DNA of 64,000 nucleotides from Octopus vulgaris (Eukaryota), in the NCBI GenBank assembly GCA_951406725.2, contig OX597823.1, positions 74,648,001 to 74,712,000 on the forward strand. Reading direction: 5' to 3'. The translations under genes were made by a program, and so were the position numbers. Of this stretch, positions 15,951 to 23,960 are shown piece by piece. Under the pieces are notes generated by a model, which ran no database searches, was not told the DNA's origin, and saw only the letters and a list, made by a program, of their open reading frames with translations. Each line of letters begins with the position of its first letter. Position 1 is the stretch's first letter.

Positions 15951-15985
<35 letters not shown>

Positions 15986-15987
<2 letters not shown>

Positions 15988-17459
15988 CCCTACCCACCGT
16001 CTAAGCAATTATATTGACATTGTTTTGAAACCACTATGTACTTACATACCCAGTTTCATCAGGGATGACATCGACTTCCTGTCCCGTCTTCCCCAAAACA
16101 ACAGAAACAAATTCAGTTTTACTAAGTTTTGATGTGGTAAGCCTCTACACCAATATTCCGCACGATTTAGGAATAAAGGCGATTAAATACTGGTTAGAAA
16201 AACATTGAGAAGTGATTCCCAGCAGATTCACAGTGCCATTTATATTAGACACAGTCAAACTTATTCTAGAAAACAGCACATTCTTCTTCAATGGAAAGAA
16301 TTACATCCAAATTAGAGGCACGGCGATGGGAACGAGGTTTGCTCCCGTTTACGACAACTCTGTAATTGGATACTTAGAACAACAACTCTACCAAGAGGTG
16401 GAGGTAAACTATGGCACTGGATTTAGAAAGTATATTGAAAAGGCATGGAAGAGATACCTTGACGACTGCTTCATAATCTGGACAGAATCTCTAAATACTC
16501 TGGAAGAGTTCAATATCCTCCTGAACAACCTACACCCAGCTCTCCAATTTACAAAGGAGATGAGTAGTACCAAATTACCATTCCTAGATATAATGGTAAT
16601 TAAAAAGACACCACCATCACCACAGATATATACTATAAACACACAGACACACATCAATACCTAAATTTTAAGTCGTGCCATCCACCACATGCAAAACGCA
16701 ACATCCCATACTGACTAGCCAGAAGAATTTGTACCATTATAGAAGATGCAAGTATCAGGAACAAACGCCTAATAGAACTAAGAGAATTTTTGCTCAAACA
16801 AAAATACCCATCTCTACTTATAGAAAATGGCATACAGCGGGCTATAAAAATACCCATACAACAACTTAGGACAACCCAAGGAAGAGGAAAACAAGAACAA
16901 GTCATACCATTCATAGTGACACACAACCCATGTCACCAGAATATCTTCAACATTGCAAAAGCAAACCTACCAATCATTGCCCAAAGTAATGAATTAAAAG
17001 GCATAATCACGGTTCGAGCTATGGTGCTTAGTAAAATTTGACCTTAGCAACAAAGACCAAACATTCACTGTATCTAAATGCAATGATAGTCGATGTGACA
17101 CATGCCAATTCATACATACCGACCAATATATAAACACAAAAACCGGGAAAATATTCACAAACGCGAATATGAACTGCAAAAGCAGAAATTTAATTTACCG
17201 CATCAAATGCCCAAATTGTGAAGAAATATATGTAGGTCAGACAGGAAACGCACTATCAGAACGCTCACGTGTACACCGGCAACAGATTAGAGACCCAGAG
17301 GTCCGTCAGATACCTTTGAGTAACCACTTAGCAACATGTGGCCGGAAAATGTATATAATATTTCCGTTCTACAAATTACACAGCCCAAGTGAAATCGAGA
17401 GGAGAATCAGAGAAAAGAATTTTATTGATAAATTCGAACCCAAGCTAAATAAGCAATAA
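15986..17459 (+). pseudogene. PLE reverse transcriptase-GIY-YIG ORF, frameshifted
   Basis: SFDVVSLYTNIPH, QIRGTAMGTRFAP, RYLDDCF, LPFLDI, HQYLNFKSCHP, CNDSRCDTC, NLIYRIKCPNCEEIYVGQT..R..H..E..FI..PKLN. Several frameshifts and stops. Confidence 0.92.
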
Positions 17460-17877
17460 TAATAATACTTAGATAGCAGGAAAATTATCTTATTTAGGGT
17501 TAAAAGTTATATTGCCACCACCATCACCACTAGCAACAATAATTAAGGTGCTGACAATGATGATGATGGCAATTGAAATATAAAAATATAAAAAATCTCT
17601 GACAAAGGCAATTTACAACATTTCTAAAAATAGCCCAACAATTGCTGCTTCGGCCAGGGTCAAGGTACAGGACTCTTGACATGTCCAACAAAGCGTGACG
17701 GCTAAACCAATCAGCTCAACCAACCAATCAGCTTAAGTAATTGAGTGATGCTACACACTGATTGGTCAGAATACAGTTTACAAAACCTAGCATTTGGAGC
17801 CAACTGTATTTCAAGCACAGATTCAATCATCTCGCTACAGTCAAAAATTTTGAAGCATGACTGTCACCACTACTACA

Positions 17878-17922
17878 TGAACCTGAAGATTGCAGAATTT
17901 AATGCATGAAAGTACTAGTTCA
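17878..17922 (+). ncRNA. Minimal type I hammerhead ribozyme motif in the PLE 3' region
   Basis: tgaac-CTGAAGA-t-tgca-gaatttaa-tgca-t-GAA-AGTACT-A-gttca. Stem I is tgaac/gttca, stem II is tgca/tgca, stem III is palindromic (AGTACT), triplet CUA. Confidence 0.75.
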
Positions 17923-18206
17923 ATCAGAATGAACATTTAACATTTTATTATTTTATTTTATTTTATTATATTATCTTATATCATTATCAGATTGTAAATA
18001 AAACGTGAAAATCAGACAAGGTCGGAATTCCTTTTATTAATATATTCTTCTATACACAATGGCAGTCATATAAATATAAGACTAAAGCTGTCGCTGATTA
18101 GCTCCAAGAGGCCATCGCCTCTAGCTAGCTATATGACACACGAACCTGAGTCCATTACAGCCTTCGAACAGGGGAGGTTAGCCGCTTCACCTTGCTAGTG
18201 AGACAT

Positions 18207-18247
18207 CTGCAGACATGTTTCAGGGTTGTTGCCCTTTATCAATGCAG
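18207..18247 (-). ncRNA. Type I hammerhead ribozyme motif, U3-A8 variant (minus copy)
   Basis: Minus strand: ctgca-TTGATAA-aggg-caacaa-ccct-GAA-ACATGT-C-tgcag. Stems I and II are perfect, stem III is palindromic, triplet GUC. Confidence 0.75.
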
Positions 18248-18570
18248 CGTAGTCAGACTCAACCGGAGTCGCTACTGACCGTCTGTTCGAAGGTTGTAAT
18301 GGACGCAGGTTCGTGTGTCAAATAGCTAGCTAGAGGCGATGGCCGCTTGGAGCTAATCAGCGACAGCTTTAGTCTTATATTTATAAGACTGCCATATTAG
18401 TATGGCGATAACTATTAATATCCAGTAACGCTGCCGTAATCTCCTTTAGAGAGACTTAGTAATTTTAATACTTCTATTATTGAAAACAAGTGGATGTATT
18501 CCACTGTAACTAGGTAAATAAAATCTTTGAACAGACGGTCAGTAGCGACACCTGCTGAGTCTGACTACGC

Positions 18571-18609
18571 TGCATTGATAAAGGGCAACAACCCTGAAAC
18601 ATGTCTGCA
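18571..18609 (+). ncRNA. Type I hammerhead ribozyme motif, U3-A8 variant (plus copy)
   Basis: tgca-TTGATAA-aggg-caacaa-ccct-GAA-ACATGT-C-tgca, with a core identical to the minus copy. Confidence 0.75.
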
Positions 18610-18845
18610 AATACCTGACCAGCAAGGTGAAGCGGCTGACCTCCCCTGTTCGAAGGTTGTAATGGACGCAGGTTCGTGTGTCATATAGCTAGCTAGAGGC
18701 GATGGCCTCTTAGAGCTAATCAGCGACAGCTTTAGTCTGATATTTATAAGACTGCCATATTAGTATGGCGATAACTATTAATATATATATATATATATAT
18801 ATACACATACATAAAAATAATGTTTTTGTGTGTGTGTATATATAT

Positions 18846-20623: not shown

Positions 20624-21309
20624 AGGTCACAAAAGTTTCAGAGAGAACTGATTAGCACCGGTTTTTCGAAACTTAGGAGTTCAACTCACTGTCTTAACAG
20701 ACTGAGGTAAGTCCCCAGCGTACATAGTCGGATTGCAATTTCGGATTTTGACGTAGACCTCAGCAGTGGCTCTTAACGCCTAGGATTAAACTCAACTCAG
20801 TCTTATAAGTAAGAATTAAAAAAACATTGAAAAAGTGTGCTGATTTCGAAAACGCTGAAAGTGTAAAAAAATAAATTACGCTTGGGACTTATCTGCCTTT
20901 GTCAGGAACTGAAGACTGAGTGTTTGTGGTTTTGAGTTAGTTTAACTCTTACGTTTATCAAAAGCGGTGCCAGTCGGTACCCTCTATCACGTTTCTGACC
21001 TCTATTAATTTTGCCTTTAGGTTTTTAATTTGATGTCTACACTTTTACGATTTTGGAAATCTGCACAGATTTTCAATGGCTTTTCTTATACGACTGAGAG
21101 ACGTAGTTGAATTTAACCCTAGGCGTTAAGAGCCGTTGATGAGCATTAAAATGGTCTACATAAAATCCGAAATCCGAAACGCTATCCGCTTCGGACGTAC
21201 CTTACTTTGTGAGTCACATCAGACAATGCGTTTTTGGCTTTGAGTTAGTTTAGCACATATTTTTAGCAAAATCGGTGCCAGTCAGTACCATCTGTTACTT
21301 TTGTGACCT
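20624..21309. mobile_element. Compound fold-back / MITE-like element
   Basis: The left end aggtcacaaaag..actgattagcaccg has inverted partners ending at 21001 and at 21309 (cggtgccagtc..gtgacct). Internal ggctcttaacgcctagg (20768-20784) is inverted at 21118-21134. Confidence 0.6.
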
Positions 21310-21376
21310 CTCCTACTCCCTCTCTCTGTCTGTCTCTCTCTCTATATATTTATATATCTGTTTGTGTGTGTATATA

Positions 21377-23831: not shown

Positions 23832-23960
23832 TTTATTTTATAGAAGGAGCTTCTACAGGACTAGAACTCTTTCATTCAAAAGAAATCATCAAGAGCTTCC
23901 TGATGATTTCTTTTGAATGAAACAGTTCTAGTCCTGTAGAAGCTCCTTCTATAAAATAAA
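23832..23960. repeat. 60-bp-arm inverted repeat (9-nt spacer) containing hammerhead core boxes
   Basis: 23832-23891 versus 23901-23960 with one mismatch. The right side reads CTGATGA-tttc-tttt-gaat-GAAAC-agttcta-GTC. Confidence 0.85.

Follow-up and report, generated by a model that had tools for sequence, protein, structure and literature searches.

A dispersed hammerhead repeat family of Octopus vulgaris that resembles animal non-LTR retrozymes and carries a Penelope-like insertion scar

Related retrozymes and Penelope-like elements

The animal non-LTR retrozymes described from mussels (350-390 bp) and the axolotl (330/350 bp) by Cervera & de la Pena (2020; PMC7229834) consist of non-coding units, each a few hundred bp long, that are arranged in tandem; their G+C content is below 45%, every unit has one type I hammerhead, and self-pairing is strong. 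They are present in thousands of copies, and Penelope-like elements (PLEs) co-occur with them. The repeat family reported here, represented in a window of 64,000 nucleotides of Octopus vulgaris DNA (the whole stretch that was analysed), resembles them in all of these respects. It differs in the U3:A8 core of its predicted hammerhead and in that insertion ends, inversions and microsatellite targets have been mapped for it; the words 'inverted', 'microsatellite', 'target site' and 'cephalopod' are absent from the main text of PMC7229834. Li, Clavereau & Pollet (2026; 10.64898/2026.07.22.740005) have proposed that retrozymes use PLE enzymes non-autonomously. The vertebrate retrozymes they describe likewise consist mostly of no more than seven units. 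Their evidence is co-occurrence and homology to PLE pseudo-LTRs (pLTRs), whereas the octopus unit showed no homology to a pLTR in comparisons with nine PLE 3' regions and is linked to PLEs by an insertion scar.

PLE insertion itself has been studied in vitro. Purified PLE protein cuts AT-rich DNA and extends both strands, starting at two internal RNA sites that bound the so-called tail (Frangieh et al. 2024, PMC11167929). In genomes PLEs are biased towards (TA)n targets and leave an inverted, 5'-truncated copy, with the tail often at one end alone (Craig et al. 2021, PMC8557442). The octopus insertions likewise point to two internal start sites that bound a tail and to the use of both strands, and they have AT-rich or (TA)n targets, inverted truncated copies and one-sided tails. 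They are unlike PLE insertions in that their tail is 59 nt long instead of 30-40 and their template lacks an ORF; moreover, the start sites did not differ between strands in vitro (PMC11167929), whereas in the octopus genome the pairing of a short with a long end is near absolute. With the Cercyon PLEs of Schistosoma (Cervera & de la Pena 2014, PMC4209133) the family shares the U3-A8 covariation, a palindromic helix III that requires dimers, and opposite-strand pairs 100-700 bp apart, but it has the 'canonical' hammerhead and not the minimal Cercyon form with a long helix II. No published cephalopod retrozyme, and no such scar in retrozymes, was found in a literature search that covered the main texts of mostly open papers.

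The repeat unit, its hammerhead and its copies

We consider it very probable that the stretch described below is one insertion of a dispersed non-LTR retrozyme family that is pasted into (AT)n tracts by PLE enzymes. Its parts are as follows (positions of the window; unit position 1 is 18283, and the predicted cut follows unit position 323).

15985 to 18058 (start approximate), plus strand: PLE-A, a broken, 5'-truncated copy that adjoins the repeat and lies outside it
17878 to 17922, plus strand: end-repeat hammerhead of PLE-A, recognised by eye and not reported by the motif script
18059 to 18298, minus strand: inverted arm, unit positions 237 to 113
18212 to 18242, minus strand: hammerhead core of the inverted arm, from pattern and motif scan
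18283 to 18298, no strand: head-to-head arm junction, a 16-nt overlap
18283 to 18645, plus strand: full unit, 363 bp here and about 362 in most copies, non-coding
18283 to 18784, plus strand: direct arm of 1.38 units, with its 5' truncation at unit position 1
18422 to 18480, plus strand: 'tail' of 59 nt between unit positions 139 and 198
18525 to 18655, plus strand: long interrupted stem with the hammerhead at its tip, from folding and aligned copies
18569 to 18611, plus strand: predicted type I hammerhead, U3:A8 core at 18575-18581, predicted cut after 18605
18785 to 18802, no strand: (AT)n tract at the 3' end of the direct arm, the usual target of the family

A sequence-only reading of this DNA had described a direct repeat at an offset of 363, an inverted copy, the absence of an ORF and an insertion of slightly more than one monomer, and all four descriptions were borne out. 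The direct repeat comprises 18283-18421 and 18646-18784 (139 nt, 97% identity, spacing 363), while alignment places the inverted arms at 18059-18298 and 18519-18758 (240 nt, 93% identity). No stop-free frame of at least 120 aa overlaps the feature, the longest ATG frame of the unit read as a circle has 30 codons, and the direct arm amounts to 1.38 units and ends at unit position 139. The inverted arm is clipped at its 3' end, stopping at 113 where the family ends at about 139 or 198, and meets the PLE-A tail over a 2-nt overlap. At the arm junction the overlap consists of both complementary strands of the long stem in the unit; the coordinates that the sequence-only reading gave for this stem agree with the sequence. 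The unit is highly self-paired at about 42% G+C: the hairpin folds at -58.7 kcal/mol (z -4.95; 0/200 shuffles equally stable), the monomer reaches z -5.85, far better than its shuffles, and circular folds of units of 42% G+C give z -5.6 to -7.0. The two window arms diverge from the majority letters of their subfamily at 12/486 and 10/224 columns, and the insertion is probably an older, inert copy. Elsewhere in the window, a hairpin at 23837-23955 with an Rfam MIR5649 match below its cut-off and a direct repeat at 20879/21187 (20879-21311; 125 nt, spacing 308, 76%) are probably other repeats.

The core reads UUGAUAA - 4-bp stem II - GAAA - CAUG - UC at 18575-18605 on the plus strand, with GTC at 18603-18605, and the same core lies on the minus strand at 18212-18242. 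Helix I has 5-6 bp with a bulge, helix II has 4 bp and the 4-nt helix III is palindromic. This architecture fits the canonical metazoan type I hammerhead, in which helix I has 6 bp, helix II 4 bp and helix III 1-2 bp with a palindromic loop, and which functions as a dimer (PMC4209133); the motif is thus predicted to be of type I, with the U3:A8 core that the same paper reported as a covariation. The core variant had gone unstated when the hammerhead was first noted. A search of 16 kb against Rfam at E<=1 returned no hammerhead, nor did a search of the feature at E<=10. The motif's UAC bulge and CAAAUA loop presumably resemble those of a Schistosoma hammerhead, a likeness that was unconfirmed on check. 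As for two opposed hammerheads, there is indeed a motif on each strand, but the minus motif sits in the inverted arm and is merely an inverted copy of the plus one; by motif scan the unit has no distinct second ribozyme, the criterion for an ambisense viroid-like element.

The motif is not a chance occurrence, since its 31-nt core pattern has 191 exact matches in the genome against 0 for the reversed control. Freeing stem II raised the matches to 553 (reversed control 0), and a relaxed pattern that left positions 3, 7 and 8 free and covers all subfamilies gave 2,166 (reversed control 0). Among the first 100 listed of the latter, read by eye, 98 have U3 and all 100 have A8, while position 7 takes all four letters; one odd match of this pattern (L111) was dismissed as chance. 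Of 159 motifs from fetched loci, many of them selected on the core, 124 have CAUG and 31 have CGCG as helix III; both words are palindromes. Between subfamilies an A-U pair is swapped for G-C in stem II, and again in the pair beyond the stem I bulge. Across 30 aligned copies 93.6% of the stem cells are paired, and two stem I pairs are altered on both sides, in 7 and 9 copies. Double-change cells exceed all 500 shuffles of these related copies; the number of pairs altered on both sides, 4, was reached in 397/500. The hammerhead also recurs at unit spacing within arrays. The retention of core, stems and palindrome through compensatory change points to selection on ribozyme function.

The window copy itself has decayed. 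Three changes in its plus copy (unit positions 328, 331 and 332) weaken stem I, whose pair probability is 0.03-0.04 against 0.78-0.92 in a typical copy (L003). In the inverted arm stem I is intact (0.7-0.8) and the long outer stem partly decayed. Because there is only one motif per strand and stem I of the plus strand is decayed, the window locus should not release a circle, and any circle would need other loci as its source.

Other loci are plentiful. In the 2.8 Gb genome a DNA search returned 2,974 candidates, of which 40 were scored and had 93-96% identity over the whole query, and the tail motif has 2,780 exact matches (reversed control 0). In four runs under four organism labels, 4,402, 3,105, 1,985 and 54 contigs matched the unit at 80% likeness. 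Copies are spread over many contigs, the largest head-to-tail array has 5.5 units, and the unit has no conserved ORF. The suggestion of a multi-copy, non-coding family of head-to-tail units is therefore upheld by thousands of matches, and a single-copy origin is contradicted by the 2,166 hammerhead and 2,780 tail matches. The loci read were chosen by similarity or by exact motifs, mostly from the first contigs, and are not a random sample. They fall into several subfamilies, three groups being readable from the alignment. The window subfamily lies at a median of 2.3% from its majority letters; a second one, at a distance of about 15%, is young: its arrays reach 5.5 units, and over the part compared some of its loci are identical to one another. 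Arrays such as L251, L287 and L288 have a retrozyme trait that the window copy, with one hammerhead per strand, lacks. By every feature testable in sequence the family likely belongs to the animal non-LTR retrozymes. What survives of the original retrozyme reading is a dispersed, non-coding hammerhead family without an RT ORF, while opposed hammerheads and adjacency to a PLE drop out as traits.

Some loci depart from the common pattern. At L013:1464-2211 a complex insertion includes two short inverted pieces; all four of its pieces begin at unit position 4, and the junction is a local palindrome. Several arms of L211, L215 and L258 align solely from about unit position 315, with identical letters upstream, which hints at an internally rearranged or shortened subfamily.

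Relation to Penelope-like elements

It might be thought significant that the repeat stands directly behind a PLE. In the window PLE-A retains two frames (16209-16664 and 17007-17459) and a GIY-YIG domain (PF01541, E 7e-07) and is 92% identical to an intact 775-codon RT+GIY-YIG frame; its usual long 3' end is about 13 nt shorter here. It has a Cx4CxxC linker of the Neptune/Nematis type, from which we infer its clade. Its hammerhead has a C3:G8 core, a longer stem II and a palindromic helix III, as opposed to the U3:A8 core and 4-bp stem II of the unit. Alignment revealed no significant similarity of the unit to PLE-A, and none of the 29 other PLE-A copies has the unit within 1.5 kb. The view that the repeat is a family separate from the adjoining PLE is supported by these results, while its position behind a PLE is not characteristic of it. 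Both elements use AT tracts, which is the likely reason for their tail-to-tail position, and the arrangement would reflect two insertions into one AT tract followed by a small deletion. A single chimeric insertion with PLE-A as the carrier is quite unlikely. AT tracts flank the pair on either side, the two elements meet over 2 nt, and the PLE-A short end has a 9-nt motif in common with the unit's 139 end. However, similarity does not extend past this motif, tail-to-tail elements with clipped 3' ends fit a later AT-tract deletion between two insertions, the other 29 PLE-A copies are without the unit, and a comparable tail-to-tail neighbour from another PLE family lies across an AT tract elsewhere (L027/L324).

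Intact PLE-A units (L284:4783-8378, L271 and L285) have two overlapping frames in 3/3 loci: an upstream frame of 454 codons without a Pfam match and, in the -1 frame, the 775-codon RT+GIY-YIG frame, with a run of at least seven T in the overlap (about L284:6068-6075). Canonical PLEs are described as having a single ORF. The overlap may be bridged, judging from the frames, by -1 ribosomal frameshifting or removed as an intron.

The unit could also be pseudo-LTR debris, the end of an autonomous coding PLE that lies outside the sample, and we surveyed 187 distinct loci, 178 of them with a shorter flank of at least 600 bp, against 16 PLE-derived frames. In none of the 187 (a sample of thousands of copies) is the unit the end repeat of a PLE ORF, so that the alternative that all other copies are attached to an RT can be set aside. 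A PLE-like flank match is present in 15/187 loci. Apart from the one at L270, each of these matches either lies 0.8-2 kb past the 3' end of the unit or opposes it, head to head or tail to tail. L270, the sole locus with a PLE match upstream in sense, was rejected as an end-repeat arrangement, its PLE fragment being separated by its own end and AT tracts. Beyond the hammerhead upstream and beyond the tail downstream the sequence invariably belongs to the unit, as many as 5.5 of which follow one another. Two real units aligned to nine PLE 3' regions (18 tests) gave no significant similarity; the best alignment was matched by 3/60 shuffles, uncorrected for the 18 tests, and a likeness to the PLE-B 3' region was likewise discarded as weak and not significant. 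A tail shared with PLEs, considered on account of a depth peak in other runs at about unit positions 160-195, was also abandoned, the 30 fetched tail-motif matches and 20 further regions all belonging to the repeat family. A pseudo-LTR origin is thus very improbable, for all that the scar is exactly PLE-like (PMC8557442), that the first U3:A8 cores to be described came from PLE end repeats (PMC4209133), that 10.64898/2026.07.22.740005 derives retrozymes from pLTRs and that 187 of thousands of copies were read.

By the same comparison no parent PLE is found among the nine 3' regions, which counts against a PLE partner of the retrozyme family. Three PLEs are candidate leads for a carrier, going by their sequences: PLE-A, with the 9-nt motif, PLE-B and PLE-C. 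PLE-C is the largest of ten clusters in a Pfam search that sampled 30 GIY-YIG loci; it accounts for 19/30, with many 781-codon open frames in the search table. Its members (L310-L335, e.g. L316 and L312) have a U3:A8 hammerhead downstream of the GIY-YIG domain, in which the first seven core letters and the CAUG helix III are identical to those of the window subfamily, and their short and tailed ends lie at AT tracts. A PLE-B copy was met at L003:1501-3400 (= L091), where it is truncated on the 5' side, continues as far as its 3' end and faces a unit arm head to head across 14 extra letters. Two origins would suit the sequence: a single insertion from two mixed templates, or a later insertion that duplicated 8 bp.

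The insertion scar and its template

The ends of the insertions were read from 133 distinct loci with 215 arms, after six refetched duplicates and one chance match had been dropped. While the 5' ends of the arms are scattered, 84 of the 3' ends fall at 134-140, 73 at 194-199, 7 at 186-189 and 51 elsewhere. Canonical 3' ends (about 139 or 198) thus terminate 157/215 arms, and alternating AT follows 109/157 of them against 10/51 non-canonical ends. Positions 139 and 198 probably represent start sites of reverse transcription. Homology to (AT)n does not account for the choice of these two ends, as other sites, e.g. about 103, match AT repeats better. At L139, L149, L021 and L153, arms ending at about 188, about 199 or elsewhere abut (AAT)n/(ATT)n and not (AT)n, and the sequences suggest that the start site shifts with the target repeat.

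The two kinds of end are not combined freely. Among 76 head-to-head junctions, overlapping mostly by 1-6 nt, both ends are canonical in 39, and in 38 of these 139 is paired with 198 (50% expected, p 7e-11). A second sample (35 loci, a duplicated locus counted once) gave short+long pairing in 19/19, although its selection on the tail motif disfavours short+short but not long+long pairs, and a third (19 new loci, from the table) gave 13/13, two more having a non-canonical end. In total, 70/71 two-armed insertions combine one short and one long end. PLE-A, examined as a control, has 1,776 tail matches and intact, tandem units of 4,271 bp, and the pairing holds in 18/18 of its two-armed insertions (four loci classed by eye). 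The family and PLE-A alike show 5' truncation, an inverted 5' copy, a tail at one end and a microsatellite target. Because the scar matches the PLE signature of a tail at one end, mobilisation by PLEs is likely, and the earlier supposition that the repeat uses PLE enzymes gains support both from the scar and from the PLE-A control. As far as genomic copies tell, it is the known PLE signature, here on a protein-free template.

The same evidence bears on a quite different class of explanation, in which the repeat is a satellite or fold-back made at the DNA level by unequal crossover, rolling-circle DNA or MITE-like movement, or a SINE moved by a LINE. The tandem and inverted layout and the LINE-like ORFs in some flanks would suit it. 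Yet the 3' ends are fixed and the 5' ends random, the strict short+long pairing is common to the unit and a PLE, the ends carry (AT)n rather than poly(A), and the copies are dispersed over many contigs. Fixed ends and pairing, found in PLE-A as well, largely refute such an origin, which we regard as scarcely tenable.

According to the favoured explanation, transposition by PLE enzymes, repeat arrays would be transcribed, and neighbouring hammerheads would pair via their palindromic helix III and cut out monomers, perhaps with ligation into circles. Both strands of an AT tract would be cut by a PLE protein, which may act as a dimer, and the RNA would serve as template for extending the cut 3' ends, with position 198 as the start for one and 139 for the other. 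Each cDNA would end either at the long stem or at a random point, and short overlaps would join the two. Published experiments speak in part against this: in vitro the start site did not differ between strands and insertion did not require hammerhead cleavage (PMC11167929), and 8/9 tested Xenopus retrozyme dimers did not cleave (10.64898/2026.07.22.740005).

The arms give some indication of the template. The cut site is passed by 158/215 arms (a count biased by selection) and twice by 20, only 1/215 starts within 320-328, around the cut site, against 5.3 expected, and for 34, against 13 expected, the start lies at the base of the long stem. The read-through and the scarcity of starts make a cut linear monomer an unlikely template, so that a circle or an uncut multimer would have been copied. 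Both arms usually copy the same segment. Twin priming of L1 differs in this respect, its arms not copying the same segment. Rare variants are shared at 16-20% within a locus but at 2% between loci; in the window subfamily arms share 9% and tandems 20%, while copies from different loci share 1.6%, and there the divergence of opposite arms is 3.9%, that between loci 4.5%. In the young set the distance is 0.6-0.9% within and 5% between loci. Among 31 loci with overlapping copies, five locus-private variants are fixed in the overlapping copies, two of them spanning both arms; examples are L288, where 4 units share the variant, and L258 and L289, where the two arms do. This similarity and the private variants favour the use of a single template for each insertion, which is the expectation for a circle (PMC7229834), and the similarity also fits a multimer transcript from an unsampled homogeneous parent array. 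The junction of a circle would read the same as a genomic tandem junction. A-to-I editing fixed in the copies was unsupported in the window subfamily (A>G 125 vs T>C 106, p 0.17).

A PLE-mobilised repeat copied from uncut linear multimers, with the hammerhead idle in copying and no circle as template, departs from the favoured explanation in the template and in the role of the ribozyme alone, and we take it seriously while thinking it somewhat less than probable. Unprocessed RNA is the main substrate in vitro (PMC11167929), the 4,271-bp PLE-A likewise forms tandems, and both the read-through at the cut site and the similarity within loci fit. On the other hand, core, stems and helix III palindrome have been kept by compensatory change across subfamilies about 15% apart, the private variants of L288, L258 and L289 occur in all overlapping copies, and related retrozymes are mostly circular in vivo (PMC7229834).

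A more specific form of circular templating, in which a single 362-nt RNA circle and an asymmetric Penelope dimer write each insertion with PLE-C possibly as the carrier, seems to us rather doubtful. One subunit would always start at 198 and the other at 139, on separate cut strands, both would roll round the circle, and PLE-C would perhaps be held by a mixed hammerhead dimer. If this were true, the PLE 'tail' would be a fixed difference between the priming of the first and the second strand.

The class of element, the U3:A8 core and the one-sided tail have each been published already, so the gain is incremental. The return of retrozymes to DNA, with PLE enzymes and a circular template, had been proposed from co-occurrence and likeness to pLTRs. 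The octopus family supplies a scar that can be counted, in 70/71 two-armed insertions and in 18/18 of an intact PLE, and this makes the model of PLE mobilisation, along with the origin of PLE tails and inversions, simply testable.
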